Part shown: positions 496 to 52,310 of the stretch, one piece after another
Layout: each line of letters starts with the position of its first letter
Position numbering within the stretch: the first letter of the stretch is position 1
IMG/VR virus record: IMGVR_UViG_3300014838_000015
Span: 37,226 to 101,225 of that record
Source of the DNA: a virus
DNA: 64,000 bases
Direction: 5' to 3' (one strand)
Program-made: the position numbers and the translations under genes
Notes under the pieces: model-generated
What the model was told of the DNA's origin: nothing
Databases searched by the model: none
Seen by the model: the letters and a program-made list of their open reading frames with translations, nothing else

Positions 496-1329
496 TCAAT
501 CAACGTATGACCACAAAAACCCACCAGCGGTGCCACAACCGTTGTAACAAACGCGGCGGACGTTGTCCTCACCGATGCTCGTTGCTTCGCTAGCTATGCG
601 TGCAGTTTCGAACGTTGCAACGAACTCACCCGTCAACGTTCGTTGCACGACGGATCGCTTGTACGCGCTTTCGTGCATGTTTGCTTTGCATGAATCCGAT
701 CTGATGACTGCACGATCGGGTTCGACGTACCTCCACATGAATCCCTTCGATTGCTTGAGGTGACCTTGACAACACCTCACAACGTTGGCACCCTGACACA
801 GTAACATCGCTTCTTTTATGGAAGAATGAACGGCAATCAATTCGCCGTCGAGCGTTAATTGCTCGACGGGTTTGTTTGCTGCTTGACGAACGTCAAGTGG
901 TCGAACCGATCCCATCGAACCTTCACCGCCTGACGAAAAGTTCGATCCCCAAAAACCGTCTCCACCGTGGTGATACGTTCTCAATTCACCTATCAAACGA
1001 ACCTCTTCATCGAACGCAAGTCGTTCATTCAACGTTACAAACACAACGATTCGTTTCAATCCATGCATTGAAGCAATTGCGTCGTGCAGCTTGTTACGGA
1101 CCTTAGAGTTGATGCGGCCACGGTTGCCTTTGCCAACGTACTGTGCTCTGGGAACTTCTTCAGTCGTCCAATCAACGTACGTAAAGAAATACTTTTCAAC
1201 GTCGAGCTCTATCTTACGTAGCTCAACAAGCTGTGTGAGCGAATCATCAGAAAATGACACCCAATCACGTAATTTAACGAACTCAACGTTGCTCAACGTT
1301 TCACTTTTCTTAGCGAAATCAGAAATCAA
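496..1329 (-). CDS. GIY-YIG-type free-standing homing endonuclease with two C-terminal NUMOD1/IENR1-like HTH repeats
   Basis: Nuclease module TYVDW...YVGKGN...R...FDEEVRLI...NFSSGGEG. Two KPVEQLTLDG/RSVVQRTLTG...GF.W.Y repeats. Start codon uncertain. Confidence 0.8.
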   Translation of the reverse strand: MISDFAKKSETLSNVEFVKLRDWVSFSDDSLTQLVELRKIELDVEKYFFTYVDWTTEEVPRAQYVGKGNRGRINSKVRNKLHDAIASMHGLKRIVVFVTLNERLAFDEEVRLIGELRTYHHGGDGFWGSNFSSGGEGSMGSVRPLDVRQAANKPVEQLTLDGELIAVHSSIKEAMLLCQGANVVRCCQGHLKQSKGFMWRYVEPDRAVIRSDSCKANMHESAYKRSVVQRTLTGEFVATFETARIASEATSIGEDNVRRVCYNGCGTAGGFLWSYVD

Positions 1330-2632
1330 GCCTGACGCGGAACGTTAGATCTCTGTCTGGCGACTTTTGAATCGGACGTGAGACCTTTGCGATCGCCAAT
1401 AAATTGTCGTTCGCATCGTAAAGCCCTATCGAACTGATGTACGTAAACGATTGCTGCGTGTCCTCCTGACCAACGTCAATGACAACGATCCTGTTTGAAG
1501 AATCGGTGTACGTTGGATTGGAGGAGTAGTTAAATTCATCTGCTTCCGCTCGACAGAATATCAGCGTCGAATTAATATTCGTTACGTTCTGGAACGTGAT
1601 CGCCGTCTGGCTACCGCTACCCATCCTGCACGATGCGACGTGATCTATGATGTTGTCTAACGATCCACTCACCACAAAATCAGGAATGAACTTCGATGCA
1701 AACTGCGTCTGCGTACCCTTGGATCCCAACACCTGGTTACCAAGCGGTGCCATGGCATCGATGGTACCAGAAACGAACTGGCTGCCACTCGTCACCTTGG
1801 CGAGGTCCAGGACAAGAACGCCACGGTCGTAGAACATCAGACCAACGTTTCTAGTCGTGTTCGCCGAATCGACAACGTTTCCGACCTGACCACCAAACGT
1901 CGACAGCTTGTTCGACGCAGCACCGATGTCGGTGTAGATCGCACTGCCACTACAAGACGTTGAGTACAGGTTTGGAGACGTCACTCCAAAAGTACCGTTA
2001 ATCGTGTTGCCACCCGTGGATGGATTGTTCGCAGAACCTAGGTACGTCTCGACTAGACCTGAAACGTTTCCGGAGTATGGAACTGGAGCCGATGGACTGG
2101 GCGAATAAACGCTGGCTGTCTGAAAAAACCTCATCGCAAACGTCTCACGTTTGATGCTATCGCGAGCGAACAGTCGCTTGAAAGAGATGAACAGAGCAAC
2201 GTCGATCTGATCTGAGGCGTTTGAGCTGTTTAGCGGAGACGAGAACACGTTCGACGCGTTGCCAAGCAATAACTGAGCGAACTGACGATAGACGTCCAAC
2301 TTCTCGCGCATCATGAGGCTAGAACTTGGAAACAGTTCCTTGCCTGCAGAATCGACGCCGGTCTGAGCAGTCAGCTCCGTTGGACCTCCGGGTTGTAGAC
2401 CCATCGTCATGTCAAAGATCGAATTGGCAGTCTGAAGCGTAAAATCCTGATCATAAATTGTTTGAAATATCGACGATGTTACGCCTGGGCCTATTCCCCC
2501 AGTCACAAAAAGTTGATATTTTCTGCGCGAAACTGACCCGCTAATGTCCTCTTGAAGAACGTCCACCAGTTGGTTCAAAAAACTTCGTGCAGTCTTTATG
2601 TCTGCAGGAAGTATCTCTTTAAATGTCGCCAT
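1319..2632 (-). CDS. Virion structural protein (tail/baseplate-associated)
   Basis: C-terminal FCRAEADEFNYSSNPTY...TYISSIGLYDANDNLLAIAKVSRP, a motif typical of huge-phage structural proteins and similar to tail-fibre attachment domains. Ser/Thr/Gly-rich. Confidence 0.65.
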   Translation of the reverse strand: MATFKEILPADIKTARSFLNQLVDVLQEDISGSVSRRKYQLFVTGGIGPGVTSSIFQTIYDQDFTLQTANSIFDMTMGLQPGGPTELTAQTGVDSAGKELFPSSSLMMREKLDVYRQFAQLLLGNASNVFSSPLNSSNASDQIDVALFISFKRLFARDSIKRETFAMRFFQTASVYSPSPSAPVPYSGNVSGLVETYLGSANNPSTGGNTINGTFGVTSPNLYSTSCSGSAIYTDIGAASNKLSTFGGQVGNVVDSANTTRNVGLMFYDRGVLVLDLAKVTSGSQFVSGTIDAMAPLGNQVLGSKGTQTQFASKFIPDFVVSGSLDNIIDHVASCRMGSGSQTAITFQNVTNINSTLIFCRAEADEFNYSSNPTYTDSSNRIVVIDVGQEDTQQSFTYISSIGLYDANDNLLAIAKVSRPIQKSPDRDLTFRVRLDF

Positions 2633-3677
2633 ATACTACATTCTCCGTTGTTTTGTTCTGTTCTTTCAATGGATACCCTGGTTCATGAACGAAGTACGAC
2701 ACAGCGTTGGACGCAGATCGCAATTGTTCAACCAACACGTCATATGTATGCTGTTTCACTACCTTACCCCACTGTAAATCTGTCAGCCTGAACAGCTTAA
2801 ATCCTTCGTGTTGCTCAAACCACTTCATCGTTGCAACATCATTCTTCATAGTTACTCTGATTTTATCATTAATACGTTCTTCACCCATCAACCCGTGCCA
2901 ATATACACCATCAACCTGAATGTAAAGATCGAGCGATTTGACGTAAAAGTCAATTGAATGACGTGCAATCCAGCTCTGCGTTTTTATGTCATCAACTCCA
3001 AACGTGCTACTCAAAAACTTACCAACATCACGTTCAGGTTTTGAAACGAACAATCGACCCTCAGCAATCAACGTCTCTCGACGTTTTCTATTCGATTCAA
3101 CGTAATCGATCTTACTCTTGACATTTGCCGACTTAAAAGGATTATCAACGCCGTAATTTTTTAACCACGTTACAATTCTTTTGTTTAAAACACTTTTCAA
3201 TCCTGACGGTGATGACACACCGTATTTTTTAAATGAATTACTTCTACGTTTTTCTAAAACAACGGAAGAACGCATTGGATGCTTTACACCATAACGTTCA
3301 AGCATCGTTTTTTCATATATTGGCCTAAGAACCGGCGATCCAAGAGAACCGGCGGATCTAAACCTTTCGATCGTCGTTGCTACGCACTTATCCCTAATGA
3401 CCTTCAACTTCCATGGATGATCAACGCCGTACAACTCAAGGCACGTTTCCCTACACTTTTGTTGAACTTCGTTAGATATTGCTTTTTGTATATCAGATAA
3501 TCTTTTCCGTCGCGTGGGACAGGCATACGTACACTTCTGAGAACAGTACAACGCTTTTGTCTTTTTATGCGCAATGAATTCATTACCACAAAAATCACAC
3601 TTGGCGCATAGAACGGTCTTCGTACGTCGCCTTCCCAATGAATCATTCACCTGCAAACGCTCAACGTTGACTAGCAT
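2619..3677 (-). CDS. Homing endonuclease with Vsr/DUF559-like nuclease, Zn finger and about five T-L-E-x-Y-G-V-x-x-P repeats
   Basis: N-terminal CDFC...YCSQKC; ~23-aa repeats (TCLELYGVDHP, TMLERYGVKHP, SFKKYGVSSP, TWLKNYGVDNP); C-terminal SKPE...IDFY...IQVDGVYWHG. ATG 3677 is 7 nt after TAGAAT. Confidence 0.8.
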   Translation of the reverse strand: MLVNVERLQVNDSLGRRRTKTVLCAKCDFCGNEFIAHKKTKALYCSQKCTYACPTRRKRLSDIQKAISNEVQQKCRETCLELYGVDHPWKLKVIRDKCVATTIERFRSAGSLGSPVLRPIYEKTMLERYGVKHPMRSSVVLEKRRSNSFKKYGVSSPSGLKSVLNKRIVTWLKNYGVDNPFKSANVKSKIDYVESNRKRRETLIAEGRLFVSKPERDVGKFLSSTFGVDDIKTQSWIARHSIDFYVKSLDLYIQVDGVYWHGLMGEERINDKIRVTMKNDVATMKWFEQHEGFKLFRLTDLQWGKVVKQHTYDVLVEQLRSASNAVSYFVHEPGYPLKEQNKTTENVVYGDI

Positions 3678-3726
3678 CAATCAGATTCTATACATTGTTC
3701 AACAATCTTACGCTAAATGCACGTTT

Positions 3727-3909
3727 CTATTTCGCTCGTACAACGTTTGGCCTCGTCGGCGCCTCCAACGCAGCAACGTACTCACTAATCAACTCGTGTA
3801 GTCTGATCGACTCCCTGGTCCTGTTGATCCTAACGCCGCAGAACACACACCTATCGTTGTCAACGGAATCCCTCCATTCCAGGAGAGCGTTGAGAAGTTC
3901 CTTGTCCAT
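3727..3909 (-). CDS. Small hypothetical protein (CxxC)
   Basis: 60-aa ORF co-oriented with its neighbours, with purine-rich GGGGAGAAAGG upstream. Confidence 0.55.
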   Translation of the reverse strand: MDKELLNALLEWRDSVDNDRCVFCGVRINRTRESIRLHELISEYVAALEAPTRPNVVRAK

Positions 3910-4016
3910 GTTCGAACGCCTTTCTCCCCGCAGTGCGAAGTGAAGCCAACGTTCTTAACTATCGTTGAATGTAATATAAATGAATGTTACAACTATGAAA
4001 CAATTTGTGCTAGAGC

Positions 4017-4733
4017 TCAGAGGTTCTGCTGAATGACGATGCCGATATCCTGTACGGAGCCGCTCTGAACGCCTGTCACCTTCATGTATGCCTTGATCAC
4101 CGTCTTATCCGCCGTCGTCCCATACACCTGGAACGTTGCATTTGACATGCTCTTGACAGAGAGCGTGAACTGCACTGACGAACCACCGAACGAGTTCTCA
4201 GTCGGAGATCGCGTCAGAACATACGTTGCTCGTTGGTTGCCATCAATGTTCTCTGGCGTCTGCTGCATGATCTGCACAAACAGGTTTGGCACGTCGATCA
4301 CAAACGTCTGATCGCGAAGTTCAACGTCTATAGACGTTTCATTCTGTATCGTCTGCTGCACTGTGATAGTAGCTGTCTGTTGCGTTTGGATTCCAAGGGT
4401 CACTAGACCATTGAGACCATCGACGTTCGCATCACCCGAAAGCGCAAGGTTCGGCATATAAAGCAGGTTTGGATTAGAAACGGAGATTAGCTTGTACTTC
4501 TGAGCGATCGCTTGGTTTGTTAGGGCTTCAAAGATCGGTGTATTTTTCTCCAACTTTTCGGCGCCGACCGTACGACCATATTTGGTGATGACAGAATAAT
4601 TGACTTCATCATCGCCTGCCGCCCATTTATGAACAGAAAAAGATCCATCGTTGCGTGCTAAAAACTGTCTGCCAACGTCCGTGAGGACTGCATCAAGAAT
4701 AATGTTGTTGGTTGAATTATCGAGAAATCCTAT
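4017..4733 (-). CDS. Conserved virion structural protein (G-x-L-D-N...D-x-x-L-T-x-x-G-R family); apparent start codon is ATA
   Basis: The frame stays open 60 codons upstream of the track's TTG start: (I)GFLDNSTNNIILDAVLTDVGRQFLARNDGSFSVHKWAAGDDEVNY. This matches the N-terminus of the in-window paralog at 15446 (MGGILDNKSRVLDTILTLEGRRQL). Confidence 0.75.
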   Translation of the reverse strand: MGFLDNSTNNIILDAVLTDVGRQFLARNDGSFSVHKWAAGDDEVNYSVITKYGRTVGAEKLEKNTPIFEALTNQAIAQKYKLISVSNPNLLYMPNLALSGDANVDGLNGLVTLGIQTQQTATITVQQTIQNETSIDVELRDQTFVIDVPNLFVQIMQQTPENIDGNQRATYVLTRSPTENSFGGSSVQFTLSVKSMSNATFQVYGTTADKTVIKAYMKVTGVQSGSVQDIGIVIQQNL

Positions 4734-4751
4734 TTTACACGTAATTTCTTT

Positions 4752-5705
4752 CTACGGTAGATTACCGCCTTCACGAGAATACCTCCATACGTATCCAGCG
4801 CTTGTCTTTGTTAGGCCTGATGCAGCGTGAGAAATAGCACAACCTGTAACACCAACGAAATGTGCTGCCTTATTGATTGAAGAGAACGTTCTCAACAAGT
4901 TTCCGTTCTTATCGAACATTTCAACCGGTTTAGATGAAATTTCAGACAAAACCTCCAATCTTTTTGCTAAAAGGTTTTCACGTCTGTTTGCTCGACCAAG
5001 AATTTCTTTCATTCCATTTTTCATCAAACCGTTTACAATTGCTCGCTTGTGTTCTTCCGTAAGTTTCCTTCCGGTGAGCTTCTTCCTTATCATTTCACGT
5101 TGTTCTTCAGGAATCACCTTGCCTTTCTGCGACGCAGATAACCTTTCAAGGTGTTGTTGAGAACGATTCTTCGAATACTCGCTTTTCTTTGCTCGCGTTT
5201 GGTCAGAATCCTTGACACCGGTGTGAACAACGCTTTGTTTAACACGTGTTTCTTCTGACGCTTGCAAACCTAAGTGAGACTCACGCATTGCCCTTCTAGT
5301 TTCATCGCTTGGTATCCAACCAATTCTTGCTTTGCTGGCCCGTTTTTTCGATTCATCGTTCCACTTCAATCCTAACGTTCCATCGCCGCCCTTCGTCATA
5401 TTATAACCACTTTGAGGATGCTCAACAAAGTATGTCTTCAATTCAGCGATGAGCCTAACATCAGCGTCCTTCAATGATTTAGAGTCTACGTGAGTTTCTA
5501 GAACGCTTCGTTCAAATGCATCAATACCGTACTTCCTTATCGCACGGTGAATTAAACACATTGATCTCTTTTTAAACGCATCATTAATGTGACCGTTCCA
5601 ACGCTCATCAATGGTCGTAGCAGTTATTCCCACATACCCCTTCCCATTCACACGGTTCCTGATGAGGTACACCTTTCCATCGATCGCTTTACCATCATCG
5701 ATCAT
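4752..5705 (-). CDS. GIY-YIG homing endonuclease with NUMOD3 repeats and C-terminal NUMOD1 HTH
   Basis: KVYLIRNRVNGKGYVGIT...RWNGH...GYNMTKGGDG; repeated SDETRRAMRESH/SEETRVKQS motifs; KPVEMFDKNG...AGYVWRY. Confidence 0.88.
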   Translation of the reverse strand: MIDDGKAIDGKVYLIRNRVNGKGYVGITATTIDERWNGHINDAFKKRSMCLIHRAIRKYGIDAFERSVLETHVDSKSLKDADVRLIAELKTYFVEHPQSGYNMTKGGDGTLGLKWNDESKKRASKARIGWIPSDETRRAMRESHLGLQASEETRVKQSVVHTGVKDSDQTRAKKSEYSKNRSQQHLERLSASQKGKVIPEEQREMIRKKLTGRKLTEEHKRAIVNGLMKNGMKEILGRANRRENLLAKRLEVLSEISSKPVEMFDKNGNLLRTFSSINKAAHFVGVTGCAISHAASGLTKTSAGYVWRYSREGGNLP

Positions 5706-5723
5706 CGTTAAATTCTACACCGT

Positions 5724-7682
5724 TCACGCTGAACCGTTCTGAACGGCTTTGTTGTTCCTCTTTCTACCCAACTGCACCTGCGTCGTTGCCAATGGTTGTG
5801 TACCAGCAGGTAGCTGATCGTCGATAGTAATATTGATCGTTGCCGCCTTACCGTTATCAACGTTGATGAATTGTAGCTGGTAGCTCCCGCCCTTCTGCTT
5901 CGTCGCCACGACCTGATCAACCTTGTTCTGATCATCATAAACGTAATAATATTCGGGATTGAAGTAAAGCTTCACGTTCGTCGAGCTGGGACCGTTTGCC
6001 TTGATCGTGTTGACGAACAATTCACCGTCGAGGTACAGGTTCGGGTACTGTTTCGGGGCACCCAAGTGACTCACGTGCTTCTTGACGAGCACGTTCTTGA
6101 AAGCATCAAACCACACAACGTACTGCGCCGAGAGGCAACTGGAGAGCCCGTGTGCATCTACGCAAGACACGCTGTAAATAAAGCCACGTTCCTCCTTCGT
6201 CTGAGTAAGCCAATCAAAATCATCATCAACGTAGTATTGAGCAGGTGACGTAAGGTACTCAACCAGCGAAGGATCTGGTTGTTCGTTGTCAGGAAACTTA
6301 ACGTCCGAATCATCGAAATTGTAGTTCTTCTGCAATGCAAACGGTTGTTTGACGCTTGAACGTCTGAACACCTGAAACTGCTTGATGTCCTGCTGCGACC
6401 ACACCGGAAATGCCCACGTCACCGTAAGCTTGTTCGTCTCGTAGTTCCAAATAAAATCAACGTCGCCAGGAGGTGGAGGCGCATCGAGCTTCGTGGTGCT
6501 AACGTACACCTTGTTCGATGGTTTGCTGCTCACGAGGACCTTGATCGTTGCAACGTCACCGTTGCTATCATCGATCGCTGGCATCGTCAACAATCCTATT
6601 GATCTGATAGTGTAGCAGTAGTTTGCGTGGAACTTCACAGCAAAATCTGCGGTCGTGGCGACGTTCGGACTGTCGATGACAATCGGTGCCATCTTGATCG
6701 TGCTACCGTCCTGTAGAACCTCGTACTTATCAATAATGAACCCAACGATCTCTGTGCCATACTTCTCGTGGTGAAGCGCTGTTTTCTGTCTCTTCACGTC
6801 GATGTATGGTATGAACGTCTTATAATCGCTTTCGCACACCTGCGTTGAAAACTTGATCGACGATTGCTTCGCTGATTTTGCATACCCGTGAATGTTCGAT
6901 ATTTCGTTTGCCAACGTTGCCGTTGGATCGAACGCAAGGTTGTTGGCCATATCCTCAAGCAACTTTGAATTCACCTGCGTATTGACAGCAACGTTCTTCA
7001 ATCCCTCGAAGTAACCATTGACGAACCTTTTCTTCTTCGATTTTGGGTGCGTTGTAGGCGCAGAAGTTCTTCCAGCCGACGTTGGACTGTAAAATTGCGC
7101 GTTACCTGATTTGTCTGGTTGCGTTAAAGCGCGATAGACGAAGTGAGGTTTGATGCTGTTTGGTAGAGACGAGTTCAATCGTTGAGCAGAATGGTACGAA
7201 CTTGCGTTGTCGTTGTGTTCGTTCTCGAGCGTTTGCATTGCCAACGTTCCGGACACGATGTTGAATGCTTTTGTTCCTATGTCGCCATCGTGAAAGCTGA
7301 TGGCGACGAAGTTGTTTCCAGAAAAGAAATCTTCATCAACAACCTTATCGATGTTATCAAGTATCAACGAACCATTTTGCATACCTGTTATTCGCGTTGA
7401 ATTATTACGTTGAGCTAATGCACTAACGGTGTTGCCAACGTCTGCAATCTTGGGAGGCGAAAATTTGAAGTCTACCTCCCGAGGAACACGCGTCATTGAC
7501 CATTGAATGAAGCTCGAATCTATCAATGCACCAGGTCTAGAAAGCGCGCGAGCAGGAACACCTCCAGTATCATTGATGCACTCATCAGGAGTAAAAAAAT
7601 TGTACGCAAACGTTGCGGTAAAATTCCTCACCTGAGGAACGTCTACGGCATACACAAGTTTCGAAGGTTGAGAAATTGTCAT
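5724..7682 (-). CDS. Large virion structural protein with beta-rich FN3/Ig-like C-terminal half
   Basis: 652-aa ORF in an overlap-coupled operon; PPPPGDVDF...LTVTWAFP...QFQVFRRS pattern. Confidence 0.55.
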   Translation of the reverse strand: MTISQPSKLVYAVDVPQVRNFTATFAYNFFTPDECINDTGGVPARALSRPGALIDSSFIQWSMTRVPREVDFKFSPPKIADVGNTVSALAQRNNSTRITGMQNGSLILDNIDKVVDEDFFSGNNFVAISFHDGDIGTKAFNIVSGTLAMQTLENEHNDNASSYHSAQRLNSSLPNSIKPHFVYRALTQPDKSGNAQFYSPTSAGRTSAPTTHPKSKKKRFVNGYFEGLKNVAVNTQVNSKLLEDMANNLAFDPTATLANEISNIHGYAKSAKQSSIKFSTQVCESDYKTFIPYIDVKRQKTALHHEKYGTEIVGFIIDKYEVLQDGSTIKMAPIVIDSPNVATTADFAVKFHANYCYTIRSIGLLTMPAIDDSNGDVATIKVLVSSKPSNKVYVSTTKLDAPPPPGDVDFIWNYETNKLTVTWAFPVWSQQDIKQFQVFRRSSVKQPFALQKNYNFDDSDVKFPDNEQPDPSLVEYLTSPAQYYVDDDFDWLTQTKEERGFIYSVSCVDAHGLSSCLSAQYVVWFDAFKNVLVKKHVSHLGAPKQYPNLYLDGELFVNTIKANGPSSTNVKLYFNPEYYYVYDDQNKVDQVVATKQKGGSYQLQFINVDNGKAATINITIDDQLPAGTQPLATTQVQLGRKRNNKAVQNGSA

Positions 7683-14450: not shown

Positions 14451-15446
14451 TTACTCGAATACCAAGGTGAATAGGTGAATGAACGTATCGGATCCCTTTT
14501 CATCGATCATAACCTTGCCAACAAAGTAAATGTGTGATGTTGGCGCTGATCTATCACCGGTTCGATGCATGCCAAAATCAACGACGTCAAGCTTTCGTAA
14601 CGTATCATAATTCTTTTCAAAAAATTGACCAAACACGTTGTTCTTCAACGATGTTGGATCAAACGATATTTGTCGCATGTAACCTAATGACTCATAATAT
14701 CCCAGTTCGTTTTTGATTTGAGCATACGTTAAAGACGCAACTGTTGAAGCACCAAGAGTTGGATACGTTGCAAGTTGACTTTTCGCCATTGCATCAAAAT
14801 CATCCAAATTTCCAGTAGTTTTATTGACTGGAGGGAGATACGCAAAATTTGGCATGTGACTAAATCGTGGATCGCTAAAAATACTATCGAGCGAAGTGAC
14901 ATGCGTTGAGTACAAATCAGGATCAGATATTGGTCTATTGCTGTTTAACGTGAAAGTGATATCGCTAGGACCTGCTGCAAACCCATCATCTTCAAACGTC
15001 ATGTCATGAGTTGCTACTACCATCAATTTATTGAAATTACCCAACGAATTTCCCAGCAACTGTCCAGTTAGATCAGAAAATGAATTACCTTGCGAAGCTG
15101 CAACATTCTGATCACCACCAATGATCGTACCAGAAACTCCTGAATACGTGTACGCAAGTATCTTTCCAGGCGATTGTGGAATGCCATCTGCGTTGCTAAA
15201 CGGTAAAACGTTTCCTGCATCGTCGGCTCGAAACGTCACCTGATCCTGAGGCAATTGACACGCTTCAAAGTAGATCCTTTGCGTGGCATCTTGACTACCG
15301 CTTTGAATGTCAGCCTTGTAAAACGTCGTTGAATCGCTAAACGACACGTACGAAACATCAACACCACCCTGCGATAGTTGCCGACGGCCTTCTAACGTGA
15401 GGATGGTGTCTAAAACACGCGATTTATTATCAAGAATTCCACCCAT
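14451..15446 (-). CDS. Virion structural protein, paralog of 4017..4733
   Basis: Starts MGGILDNKSRVLDTILTLEGRRQL...SFSD; first gene of the operon, preceded by TACGTA. Confidence 0.65.
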   Translation of the reverse strand: MGGILDNKSRVLDTILTLEGRRQLSQGGVDVSYVSFSDSTTFYKADIQSGSQDATQRIYFEACQLPQDQVTFRADDAGNVLPFSNADGIPQSPGKILAYTYSGVSGTIIGGDQNVAASQGNSFSDLTGQLLGNSLGNFNKLMVVATHDMTFEDDGFAAGPSDITFTLNSNRPISDPDLYSTHVTSLDSIFSDPRFSHMPNFAYLPPVNKTTGNLDDFDAMAKSQLATYPTLGASTVASLTYAQIKNELGYYESLGYMRQISFDPTSLKNNVFGQFFEKNYDTLRKLDVVDFGMHRTGDRSAPTSHIYFVGKVMIDEKGSDTFIHLFTLVFE

Positions 15447-36347: not shown

Positions 36348-37363
36348 TGAAGGAATTCCGTAAGCTCATTGTTCTCGACCTCGACAATACGTTGTGGAAC
36401 GGTGTCGCCGGTGATGATGGATTAAACGTAAAACCGTTCATTGAATTTCAAACAGAATTGAAATTGCTCAAGGATCATGGTATATTGCTTGCTATTGCTA
36501 GTAAAAACGATGAAATCATTGCGTTAGACGTTATGAAGAATGCGAAAGGAATGGTTCTCAGCGAAAACGATTTCGTAGATTGGCGAATCAATTGGGATGA
36601 TAAGGCAAAGAACGTTTATGACATCACGAATGCATTGAACATTGGTTTGCAATCCGTTGTGTTCATTGATGATAATGAATTTGAGCGTGCAAGGGTCAAA
36701 GATGCGTTGCCTGAAGTTTTAGTTCCAGATTGGCCAAGCGTTCATGAGTACTATGTTGCAGCGCTACATGAGTTAGATTGCTTTGATACATCACCCACGA
36801 CAGAAGAAGATACGTTACGTACGCAGATGTATATAAAGGAACGCGAGCGTGCTAAACTTAGGTCAAACAGCGAATCGATTGATGATTGGTTGAACACGAT
36901 CGGAACGAAGATAGAGTTTGAAACATTGAACGATGATAATTTACTCCGCGTCGTTCAATTGTTGAATAAATCGAATCAAATGAACTTGACAACGAGGCGA
37001 ACGACAAGTGAAGAGTTCGTTTTATGGAACACAGCACCTGAAAACGTAACGCACGTCGTAAAGGTTTCAGACAGATTCGGTGATGCGGGATTGACGGGTA
37101 TCATTGGAATGCACATTGAACTTGATTGCATTAAGATCGTTGATTTCGTTCTTAGCTGTCGTGTGATGTGCAGGTTGGTTGAGGAAGCAATGGTTTCTCA
37201 CGTAATTGAGTTCGCAAGGAGCGTTGGTGGTATGACGAAAGTCGTTGCGGAGTACGTGCCGACCAACAGAAACAAGCCGTGTTTAGAATTCTGGCAACAA
37301 CGTTCTAGATTTAAACAATTTGATAACGTTTTTGTGTATGATTTACATGAGGTTAAACGGTGA
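36347..37363 (+). CDS. fkbH: FkbH-like HAD-IIIC glyceryl-ACP-forming phosphatase/transferase
   Basis: DLDNTLW, SKND, INWDDK, FIDDN.FER, QLLNKSNQ.NLTTRR, DRFGD.G, LSCRV. Confidence 0.92.
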   Translation: MKEFRKLIVLDLDNTLWNGVAGDDGLNVKPFIEFQTELKLLKDHGILLAIASKNDEIIALDVMKNAKGMVLSENDFVDWRINWDDKAKNVYDITNALNIGLQSVVFIDDNEFERARVKDALPEVLVPDWPSVHEYYVAALHELDCFDTSPTTEEDTLRTQMYIKERERAKLRSNSESIDDWLNTIGTKIEFETLNDDNLLRVVQLLNKSNQMNLTTRRTTSEEFVLWNTAPENVTHVVKVSDRFGDAGLTGIIGMHIELDCIKIVDFVLSCRVMCRLVEEAMVSHVIEFARSVGGMTKVVAEYVPTNRNKPCLEFWQQRSRFKQFDNVFVYDLHEVKR

Positions 37364-47493: not shown

Positions 47494-47568
47494 GCCCCTG
47501 TAGCTCAGCGGTCGAGCGGCCGTATTTCAACCCGGCGTCGCACGTGGGTTCGAATCCCTCCGGGGGCG
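47494..47568 (+). tRNA. Atypical tRNA or tRNA-like gene; anticodon ambiguous (TTC Glu or TCA)
   Basis: Acceptor GCCCCTG/CGGGGGC, D-arm GCTC..GAGC, T-loop TTCGAAT. The anticodon stem is only 4 bp (GCCG/CGGC) around the 10-nt TATTTCAACC. No encoded CCA. Confidence 0.75.
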
Positions 47569-47572
47569 CTCT

Positions 47573-51248: not shown

Positions 51249-51559
51249 TTATCATTACGTTGTTCATTTTGTCAATGTTGTTCTTATCGGGTTGGTTGAA
51301 CGTTACAACGATCAAGAAGAACCTAGAACTCAACGATCAACGTGAAGCACTCGTCGATAAAATTGAGGAATCGCTTGATATGTTGGATACGTGCTACGGT
51401 CGAATGGCTCATCATTCCGAGCTTCCTCTGTTCAGCGACGAACCGATCGTTCAGGACGTTGTGCGAGACCTCAAAATGGTAAAGAACGCCATTTTATCGA
51501 TCGCCAGCCTAATCGTCACGTATGGAACAAACAAGGATGACGTTAGCACTGATGAGTGA
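51245..51559 (+). CDS. Membrane-anchored coiled-coil hypothetical protein
   Basis: N-terminal TM segment followed by a helical acidic region. Confidence 0.65.
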   Translation: MIIITLFILSMLFLSGWLNVTTIKKNLELNDQREALVDKIEESLDMLDTCYGRMAHHSELPLFSDEPIVQDVVRDLKMVKNAILSIASLIVTYGTNKDDVSTDE

Positions 51560-52310
51560 TAAAACATTTCACACGTACGTTGATTGGACGATGGAGGAAA
51601 CACCTCGTCCGTTTTACGTCGGTAAGGGAAATGAAAATCGAATCAATTGTTTAAAACGTAACATTCATCATACTCGTGTTTCTAATAAACATGGCATTGA
51701 TCGACGAATCGTGTTAATTACGACTGATGAACAATTGGCATTCAACGAAGAGATTAAGTTGATTGCCGAACATCATACGTTCATTGATGATCATTTTTAC
51801 AACGGCATTGGTTGCAATTACACGATTGGAGGCGAAGGTCACACGCCATCAAATGAAATGCGCAAAGCGTATTCCGACAGGATGATTGTATTCTGGAACA
51901 ATCCAGAATTTAAAGCTCGCGCATGTGAAAAGATGAAGGGACACAATCGTCCGCATTCACAGGAATGGAAGTATCAACACAGCGAACGCATGAGTGGCAC
52001 AGGCAATCCTAACTTTGGAAAGAAATTTTCAAAAGAAACGTGTGCAAAATTGAGTGCATGGCAAAAAGGCAAGCAAAAGGCATCACGTGGAAAGAAGATG
52101 AAACCTGATGCGATGGCTGCGAACTATAAACAGATCACGGTGATCGATTCTATTGAAGGCAGAAGAACGTTCGTATCTCGTAAAGAAGCTGCACAAGTTA
52201 TTGCTAATGAGTTAGGATTGTCTAGCAATACGATCAAATGTTGGTTTGTTGCACGAAAAATTTCTTGTCACGGTTTAACTTTTGAATACACCGACGTAGA
52301 GAACAAATGA
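51552..52310 (+). CDS. GIY-YIG-type homing endonuclease with NUMOD3-like motifs
   Basis: TYVDWT.EE.PR..YVGKGN (paralogous to 496..1329), FNEEIKLI, NYTIGGEG, GNPNFGKKFSKET..KLS. Confidence 0.85.
   Translation: MSDKTFHTYVDWTMEETPRPFYVGKGNENRINCLKRNIHHTRVSNKHGIDRRIVLITTDEQLAFNEEIKLIAEHHTFIDDHFYNGIGCNYTIGGEGHTPSNEMRKAYSDRMIVFWNNPEFKARACEKMKGHNRPHSQEWKYQHSERMSGTGNPNFGKKFSKETCAKLSAWQKGKQKASRGKKMKPDAMAANYKQITVIDSIEGRRTFVSRKEAAQVIANELGLSSNTIKCWFVARKISCHGLTFEYTDVENK

Follow-up and report, generated by a model that had tools for sequence, protein, structure and literature searches.

How is a conserved gene translated when the codon at its first position is not one of the usual start codons? The question is raised by a 238-codon gene on the minus strand of a 64,000-nt stretch of virus DNA (IMG/VR record IMGVR_UViG_3300014838_000015, positions 37,226 to 101,225), hereafter called the window, which comprises the last 64 kb of a 101-kb contig with a CheckV completeness of 29%. 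The gene lies behind a free-standing homing-endonuclease gene of the GIY-YIG type, and ATA stands where its homologs begin with ATG. The phage was found in peat and permafrost metagenomes, and the related contigs measure 309-369 kb, which makes it a jumbo phage. The original prediction, made from the sequence of the window, offered three options for this layout: initiation at AUA, programmed readthrough of the UAG that ends the endonuclease gene, and removal of the endonuclease segment at the RNA level. Our analysis indicates that the 238-codon gene is probably live and translated from AUA (4733-4731), at the position of the AUG of its homologs, and that the class of alleles with ATC or ATA at this position is carried by the tail of an endonuclease cassette.

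ATA at the position of the start codon

The minus-strand reading on which the original prediction was based, ...CTA CCG TAG AAA GAA ATT ACG TGT AAA ATA GGA TTT CTC GAT AAT, is correct. The endonuclease TAG is in frame with the downstream open reading frame (ORF), and six sense codons lie between the TAG and the ATA. As claimed, ATG, GTG and TTG are absent for 60 codons; the first of them after the TAG is TTG 4553, codon 61 of the gene, where the automatic ORF listing had placed its start.

A set of 160 related loci was gathered from IMG/VR and JGI metagenomes, and each locus was aligned to residue 1. The ATA falls in the column of Met1 of both distant and close homologs, which is where Met had been expected. 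The distant homologs, from Flavobacterium immuto phages and the Microcystis phage Mel-JY01, start with MGYLDN, and MGFLDN is the N-terminus in most of the 160 loci. The aligned start codon was ATG in 138 loci, ATC in 20 (13 distinct sequences), GTG in one and TTG in one. A comparison with orthologous loci, which had been proposed as a check, thus revealed ATC at the same codon in 13 distinct alleles, every one of them with an endonuclease gene or its remnant upstream. A megablast search against phage GenBank records gave no match, and tblastn returned only the distant homologs named above.

The ATA is not an assembly error. A DNA contig from an independent run, covering 4664-4814, has zero differences from the window, and so has an RNA-library (metatranscriptomic) contig from run X15, covering 4250-4784, in which neither a joint nor an edited base was seen. 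At least nine peat or permafrost DNA runs from 2018-2023 contain all sampled words of 3900-5900, and runs up to 2025 match in part. An assembly error is excluded because the independent DNA contig, the RNA-library contig and at least nine runs carry the same sequence. Neither ATG in the reads nor homologs starting at TTG 4553, the two findings that would have spoken against the prediction, was encountered.

The RNA-library contigs cover only 4161-4784, and their absence over the endonuclease body says nothing about silence of that gene. The upstream end of the X15 contig lies 51 nt 5' of the ATA, just before a hairpin described below, and no contig from either RNA run covers the endonuclease body. 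Since the ends of contigs are not those of transcripts, this does no more than hint at a separate transcript start for the 238-codon gene within the 3' end of the endonuclease gene.

Probable translation from the ATC/ATA codon

Selection on the N-terminal codons was determined in the 14 ATC/ATA alleles, among which the synonymous differences per site are near saturation (pS ~0.8). The ratio of nonsynonymous to synonymous differences per site (pN/pS) was 0.19 for codons 2-20, 0.13 for codons 21-60 and 0.20 for codons 61-238. Codons 2-20 are under purifying selection like the rest of the gene, which argues that translation starts at, or just before, the ATC/ATA codon. The frame of the window copy is intact, and its pN/pS is ~0.14 versus the nearest relative; the synonymous divergence on the window's own branch is saturated, and a branch-specific dN/dS ratio is not derivable.

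The nearest in-frame stop is 6-9 codons upstream in the window and in the alleles L022, L064, L070, L044 and L058, and the stretch from there to Gly2 is free of ATG, GTG and TTG. Seven other ATC alleles have an in-frame canonical start upstream, so the test by absence of any other start is decisive for only part of the class. In L012, this start is an ATG ~25 codons upstream, and in L014, L034, L042, L096, L106 and L112 it is a TTG four codons upstream; L014 has an ATG as well. A start four codons before the ATC was considered and rejected; the codon there varies among alleles (TTG, CTG, TTA, ATT, ACT). The only position-conserved start candidate is the ATC/ATA codon itself. It is this set of results, namely ATC beside an endonuclease or its remnant in 13 related alleles, purifying selection on the N-terminus and several alleles without a canonical start, that favours AUA initiation over the other two options.

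A stop codon in each of the other two frames (TGA in TGAGG and TAA in GTGTAAC) precedes the ATC of the main ATC class by no more than 8 nt. In the window, the endonuclease TAG is 18 nt upstream of the ATA, and a TAA is found at -4 to -2. We infer that AUA or AUC is the codon actually used, reached either by de novo initiation or by restart after the stops 1-18 nt upstream. The initiator tRNA would read the near-cognate AUA, the protein would begin Met-Gly-Phe-Leu-Asp-Asn, and the predicted N-terminal peptide is (M)GFLDNSTNNIILDAVLTDVGR. Given the nearby stops in both other frames, ribosomes ending any upstream frame could restart at the ATC.

The codons AUA, AUC and AUU are listed as possible starts in NCBI table 11. 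In E. coli, they initiate at ~1-2% of the AUG rate, and the protein still carries an N-terminal Met (preprint 10.1101/063800). Most genes of the window have no clear Shine-Dalgarno signal, and (T)AAC or CAC is common before their ATG; the initiation rules of the host may differ from those of E. coli. The 101-kb contig contains no phage initiator-like tRNA for AUC or AUA.

The tail of the endonuclease cassette

The odd start codon is accompanied by a characteristic upstream sequence. Directly 5' of the ATC, all ATC alleles have GTGTAAC (once GTGTACC and once GTGTAAT), and ten of them carry GGGYTGAGGTGTAAC or a sequence close to it. The main ATC class has a GAGGTG block 4 nt 5' of the ATC, where the sister ATG class has ACGGTGAC instead. 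The tail of L022 and L064 reads TAG-A(A/T)AGGAAYTACGTGTA(A/C)C, and that of L070 is more diverged (TAGAAGGAATTAGAGTGTAAT). The tail of the window, TAGAAAGAAATTACGTGTAAA, is a degraded copy of the L022/L064 type, with AAAGAAA in place of AAAGGAA and without the GAGGTG block. When IMG/VR was searched with the pattern GGTGTAAY followed by ATN and the start of the gene, six contigs were obtained, of which all six have ATC and none ATG. Shorter DNA patterns with 14 fixed bases gave mostly chance hits among the matches listed, and the longer pattern was used instead. No ATG revertant was found among the 10 distinct alleles with the GGTGTAAC flank in the 160 loci, nor any with a flank of the GGTGTAAY type in any collection searched.

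Endonuclease sequences in various states of preservation lie upstream of this tail. L042 and L044 have a full GIY-YIG ORF ending in ...(V/A)EV, the TAA of which is 1 nt before the ATC, and L022 is a partial contig of such an ORF. L034 has an endonuclease copy with an internal deletion that removes the catalytic core. In L064, a different endonuclease family stands ahead of the same tail. Only the last 20-60 endonuclease codons, recognized by a ...HKGY.W.Y motif or as a DNA remnant, are left in L012, L014, L054, L058, L070, L096, L106 and L112. An intact G[YF].W.[YFH] motif was present within 130 nt upstream in 7 of 13 ATC alleles versus 7 of 82 ATG alleles (Fisher test without correction for relatedness, p 3e-4).

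The spacer between the upstream 652-amino-acid (aa) gene and the 238-codon gene is an insertion hotspot, in which endonuclease genes, ORFs of 130-160 aa, small ORFs and remnants are found. As endonuclease genes also occur beside ATG alleles, where they have other 3' ends (e.g., GGGTTACGGTGACGT-ATG), the site is a general hotspot and the odd codon is tied to one tail type. The hotspot of L010, L011, L014, L015 and L106 holds an ORF family of 129-162 aa (M..MNLFQQLWKNW...) plus other small ORFs, and that of L004 and L021 an 83-aa Cys-rich ORF. At L070:345-2330, the upstream gene of ~650 aa is read as two ORFs (298 + 354 aa); a frameshift, a sequencing error or a split gene is possible.

A small hairpin, CGGTA-ATC-TACCG, had been described next to the endonuclease stop, and it is indeed there. 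A hairpin was found at the same place, ~20-25 nt before the ATC/ATA, in 11 of the 14 ATC/ATA alleles, among them L012, L014, L034, L054, L064, L070, L096, L106 and L112 besides the window; it is absent in L042, L044 and L058. The stems vary (GCGGT/ACCGC, GCGGC/GCCGC, ACCGG/CCGGT and ACAG/CTGT), the encoded residues differ, and YAGA follows the hairpin. The single-sequence z-scores are weak. As a genome-wide signal, the combination of hairpin and YAGA was rejected, since the 101 kb contain just 8 scattered hits; hence it is specific to the cassette. The hairpin may serve in RNA processing, bind a protein or act as a translation signal. Another candidate structure, a stem from the Shine-Dalgarno region to codon 4 that encloses the start codon, occurs in some alleles and was rejected as not conserved.

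Horizontal movement of the tail and the start codon

A maximum-likelihood tree of the gene was constructed with the first ten codons excluded. The 12 ATC/ATA rows need 11 state changes on this tree, a number equal to that obtained with shuffled labels, and at least 6 of the changes are forced by branches with support of >=95 in the Shimodaira-Hasegawa-like approximate likelihood ratio test (SH-aLRT). Sister alleles that are unlike in their start codon are exemplified by L042 (ATC) and L045 (ATG), L034 and L035, and L022 and L005; in such pairs, homology begins at the start codon or a few bases from it, and there is none upstream. The scatter of ATC/ATA alleles over the gene tree leads to the conclusion that the flank and the odd codon move as one module.

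In the 36 nt at the 5' end of the gene, which bear on the downstream limit of this module, divergence seemed higher for a few sister pairs; over all alleles, the difference was not significant (Mann-Whitney p 0.13). A co-conversion tract inside the gene was rejected, as these 36 nt display no significant excess of divergence or of sharing, and the exchanged module therefore stops essentially at the start codon. The closest relative of the window endonuclease, at 37% identity, lies beside an ATG allele; endonuclease bodies and tails evidently recombine.

Diverse endonuclease genes, remnants and unrelated ORFs at one site, together with the incongruence of the tail and ATC with the gene tree, characterize the element as one with homing-type mobility. 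In the mechanism we propose, the cassette would occupy the hotspot that follows the 652-aa gene, and the last 10-30 nt before the 238-codon gene would be its 3' tail, made up of the hairpin, a purine-rich block and GTGTAAC. Endonuclease bodies would arrive, decay and be replaced, and the tail with its ATC/ATA codon would persist, carried from one phage lineage to another by recombination with its endpoint at the start codon.

Why the odd codon is kept: explanations compared

Several results weigh against initiation at AUA or against its link with the cassette. Endonuclease genes also adjoin the ATG alleles of L005, L018, L045, L056, L060, L066, L074 and L100, so that the presence of an endonuclease does not call for the odd codon. 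In the first 36 nt of the gene, ATC alleles, taken over all alleles, are no more alike than ATG alleles, which gives no pointer to a cleavage site. By standard criteria, the initiation region of the window is the weakest of its class, with ATA, no GAGGTG and a degraded AAAGGAA. AUA and AUC are weak starts in E. coli. Finally, the RNA-library contig may come from contaminating DNA.

Our preferred reason for the persistence of the codon is that endonucleases which target the ATG allele no longer cut the changed start region, which we consider plausible. Taken further, the change from ATG to ATC or ATA might be an adaptive part of the cassette: an endonuclease lineage whose cuts fall in the start region of the gene would bring along, at its 3' end, a replacement initiation region that is immune to cleavage and is retained after the endonuclease has decayed, as reversion would expose the gene again to endonucleases present among the phages. 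The elements of such a region would be the hairpin, a near-cognate start, a strong purine block and a stop in each of the other two frames. We put this forward tentatively, as a possibility that is more easily doubted than believed. With the endonuclease lost from most members of the class, the drive has ended; that the single C-to-G reversion has nevertheless occurred in none of them fits selection for an uncut start region.

The main competing explanation is that ATC/ATA brings no benefit. It would have arisen once beside an endonuclease and spread through the drive of the element on its flank, and the weak start would be tolerated, either because little protein is needed or because GAGGTG compensates. 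The horizontal movement of the module agrees with this, as does the strong GAGGTG 4 nt upstream of the codon in the main ATC class and its replacement by ACGGTGAC in the sister ATG class; in T4, flanks are known to be co-converted with endonuclease genes (PMC2988022). Most ATC alleles, however, have no endonuclease and the drive on them is over, yet none of the six IMG/VR contigs and none of the 10 distinct alleles with the GGTGTAAC flank has reverted, despite a pS of ~0.8. We therefore regard spread without benefit as rather unlikely.

Another possibility concerns the window alone. Its copy may have been disabled recently, in that the step from ATC to ATA and the loss of the purine-rich signals silence the gene, and the phage does without the product or partly substitutes for it. 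The weakness of the initiation region described above is in line with such silencing, and the substitution at the catalytic Glu of the endonuclease suggests a decaying locus. Against this stand the intact 238-codon frame with its low pN/pS, the occurrence of the same sequence in at least nine peat and permafrost DNA runs and in an RNA-library contig, and the lack of a true paralog of the protein in the contig. Recent silencing of the window copy is accordingly improbable.

Programmed UAG readthrough, which would give a fusion of the endonuclease with a virion protein and the junction peptide ...GGNLP-x-KEITCKIGFLDN, was suggested by the in-frame arrangement of the two reading frames. This layout turned out to be peculiar to the window, and with a one-in-three chance of arising it needs no explanation. 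The endonuclease ORF of L034, L042 and L044 is read in a different frame and its TAA is 1 nt before the ATC; other alleles retain only remnants, and there the in-frame stops are 6-10 codons ahead of the ATC. As a stop, TAG is nothing unusual in the window, where it ends 6 of the 62 ORFs, and no tRNA-CUA that could act as a suppressor was found in the contig, so that readthrough is highly improbable. Reassignment of TAG as a sense codon was rejected on the same stop count and lack of tRNA-CUA, and because long ORFs are uninterrupted under table 11.

Removal of the segment 5702-4731 at the RNA level by a group I intron or similar element, joining the endonuclease ATG to GGA, is scarcely credible: although the segment measures 972 nt, a multiple of three, and many phage GIY-YIG endonucleases are intron-encoded, an Rfam scan of 3800-6000 at E (expectation value) up to 10 gave chance-level hits only and no intron or ribozyme, an intron core would have to fit into just 18 nt before the ORF and 21 nt after it, the remnant alleles keep the ATC without an upstream ATG exon, and the RNA-library contig follows the DNA through the proposed 3' junction without joints (weak evidence, from assembled contigs only).

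The sole tRNA-like gene of the 101-kb contig lies at 47494-47569 (+). It has 70% GC and an eight-base anticodon loop with TTCA, and ARAGORN designates it 'tRNA-?(Glu|SeC)'. A role as an opal (UCA) suppressor or as one that decodes four bases is conceivable, yet TGA ends more ORFs of the window than any other stop (41 of 62).

Comparison with known systems

Initiation at AUA/AUC from a cassette tail resembles several known systems in part. The free-standing Seg endonucleases of T4-like phages, known for 'intronless homing', likewise combine a GIY-YIG nuclease with a NUMOD-type DNA-binding C-terminus. They are inserted between conserved genes, are present or absent among relatives, occur as decayed copies and have a flank that is inherited with the element (T4: PMC2988022). 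The difference is that here the 3' end of the cassette reaches the first codon of the neighbour, where ATG is replaced by ATC or ATA. We know of no Seg or Mob case in which the start codon of the neighbour is changed.

The T4 mobA/gene 60 cassette is similar in that a mobile endonuclease cassette carries an unusual translation feature into a conserved gene, which in T4 is essential. The endonuclease travels there with a 50-nt translational bypass element, and homologous cases occur across metagenomes (10.1101/2022.08.31.505936; PMC2988022). In T4, ribosomes hop a 50-nt gap in a split gene and the endonuclease is of the HNH family, whereas here the gene is intact, a single near-cognate codon would serve for initiation, and the endonuclease is of the GIY-YIG family. 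The original report reportedly proposed that the bypass insert protects the gene 60 site from MobA.

The AUU starts of the bacterial genes infC and pcnB share with the present case a third-position mismatch with the initiator tRNA. Initiation at these codons is reduced and sensitive to IF3, and the protein begins with Met. Unlike infC, where AUU serves the autoregulation of IF3, the gene studied here belongs to a late module of a phage, and its AUC or AUA is polymorphic with AUG and linked to a mobile element. Translational coupling or restart, as at UAAUGA of T4 nrdA/mobE and in the scanning model of van Duin, has stops close upstream, as does this locus. Such restart geometry has been discussed for T4 endonuclease genes (PMC2988022). 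The restart codon is AUG in the known cases, and AUC or AUA in the one proposed here.

Non-AUG initiation and free-standing endonuclease cassettes are both already known; what appears to be new is a near-cognate start carried by a cassette tail across many jumbo-phage lineages. A selfish endonuclease cassette would thereby reach the first codon of a conserved neighbour and fix a weak start across many lineages. If the immunity explanation is true, the cassette would parallel, at a start codon, the bypass cassette of T4 mobA/gene 60, and genetic conflict, not regulation, would be what keeps AUC or AUA as the natural start of a conserved gene. The locus lends itself to the questions of how host-gene translation signals are remodelled by mobile elements, how well AUC and AUA initiate in natural contexts, and whether target-site immunity can outweigh translation efficiency. 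A practical consequence is that gene finders, which disallow ATC and ATA starts, truncate the gene at an internal start, extend it upstream or drop it in these jumbo phages.

The endonuclease

The product of the endonuclease gene matches Pfam PF01541 (E 6.5e-8, above the curated cut-off) and PHROG 314 (E 1.4e-38). PF07453 (NUMOD1) was found at residues 259-286, also above cut-off, together with a weak I-HmuI NUMOD-like hit. The protein aligns to residues 4-69 of the I-TevI catalytic domain (1mk0), and the pattern VYL...YVG...RW...H, with the Tyr, Tyr and Arg of the family, is conserved. The original prediction had noted Asp at the position of the catalytic Glu. An alignment of 13 endonucleases agrees with this: the window enzyme has Asp82 where 11 of 11 others with this segment have Glu. 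The column corresponds to I-TevI Glu75 by hand extension, as the I-TevI alignment itself ends at residue 69. The enzyme, a family member by descent, may be weakened or inactive. Asp82 and the numerous decayed copies at other loci agree with a late stage of the element's invasion-decay cycle. The endonuclease-type genes with FDEEVRLI (496-1329) and FNEEIKLI (51522-52310), with which it had been compared, both exist.

Endonuclease genes are very dense in the window: 496-1329 (-), 2619-3680 (-), 4752-5705 (-) and 51522-52310 (+). Three of them lie within 5.3 kb amid conserved late-module genes, two being GIY-YIG-like and one of the DUF7487/PHROG 3339 type. The genes 3' of the other two nearby endonuclease genes have ordinary ATG starts.

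The product of the 238-codon gene

The protein is 78-86% identical to those of many jumbo-phage contigs, and its N-terminal 70 residues are the most conserved part of the family. Searches of PHROGs and Pfam gave no match for the 238-aa protein nor for its large neighbours. In an AlphaFold model made from 45 sequences, a C-terminal beta-sandwich (residues 90-237) has a predicted local distance difference test score (pLDDT) >90, and the N-terminal arm is of low confidence. Foldseek returned only generic Ig-like or beta-sandwich matches from PDB and BFVD, and the ESM Atlas yielded only viral clusters of 'hypothetical protein'. The neighbouring genes encode very large proteins, and the homolog in the immuto phages lies three genes before an annotated tail fibre gene. 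From this neighbourhood, the product is probably a virion or tail-module protein. The gene had been called a conserved structural gene; its conservation is clear, and the structural role follows from the neighbourhood only, with no named family or specific fold match.

A supposed paralog at 14451-15446 shares with the protein only an N-terminal motif of ~26 residues, GxLDN...LDxxLTxxGR (BLASTP E 0.04). The motif was thus recognized correctly, and the gene is not a true paralog. The motif may be a docking element.

Layout of the locus

On the minus strand, the 652-aa gene is followed after 18 nt by the endonuclease ORF and then by the 238-codon frame (Table 1).

Table 1. Features of the locus in window coordinates.
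Feature	Position	Strand	Remark
Conserved upstream gene, 652 aa	5724..7682	-	Syntenic in all related loci with enough flank
Motif ACGGTGTAGAATTT just 5' of the endonuclease ATG	5709..5722	-	Similar (A)TGTAGGAT motifs after the upstream-gene stop in L012, L018, L020 and L010
Free-standing GIY-YIG + NUMOD homing-endonuclease gene, 317 aa	4752..5705	-	Stop TAG 4754-4752
GAT (Asp82) at the column of the catalytic, metal-binding Glu	5460..5462	-	Endonuclease alignment
Hairpin CGGTA-ATC-TACCG within the endonuclease 3' end, abutting TAG	4755..4767	-	Sequence
18-nt spacer AAAGAAATTACGTGTAAA, the cassette 'tail'	4734..4751	-	Homologous to the tails of ATC alleles
ATA at the start-codon position; proposed initiation codon	4731..4733	-	Aligned to Met1 of homologs
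Conserved 238-codon gene	4017..4733	-	Conserved N-terminal arm and C-terminal beta-sandwich

The ACGGTGTAGAATTT motif may be a promoter or a ribosome-binding signal. Motifs resembling TACGTA (ATACGTA, AACGTAA) were observed 10-40 nt before the starts of many genes in the window, e.g., at 14451-15446, 42476, 43973, 47943, 56685, 58587 and 60132, and may represent a phage promoter. In relatives, AATACGTAAGGG precedes ATG alleles of the 238-codon gene.

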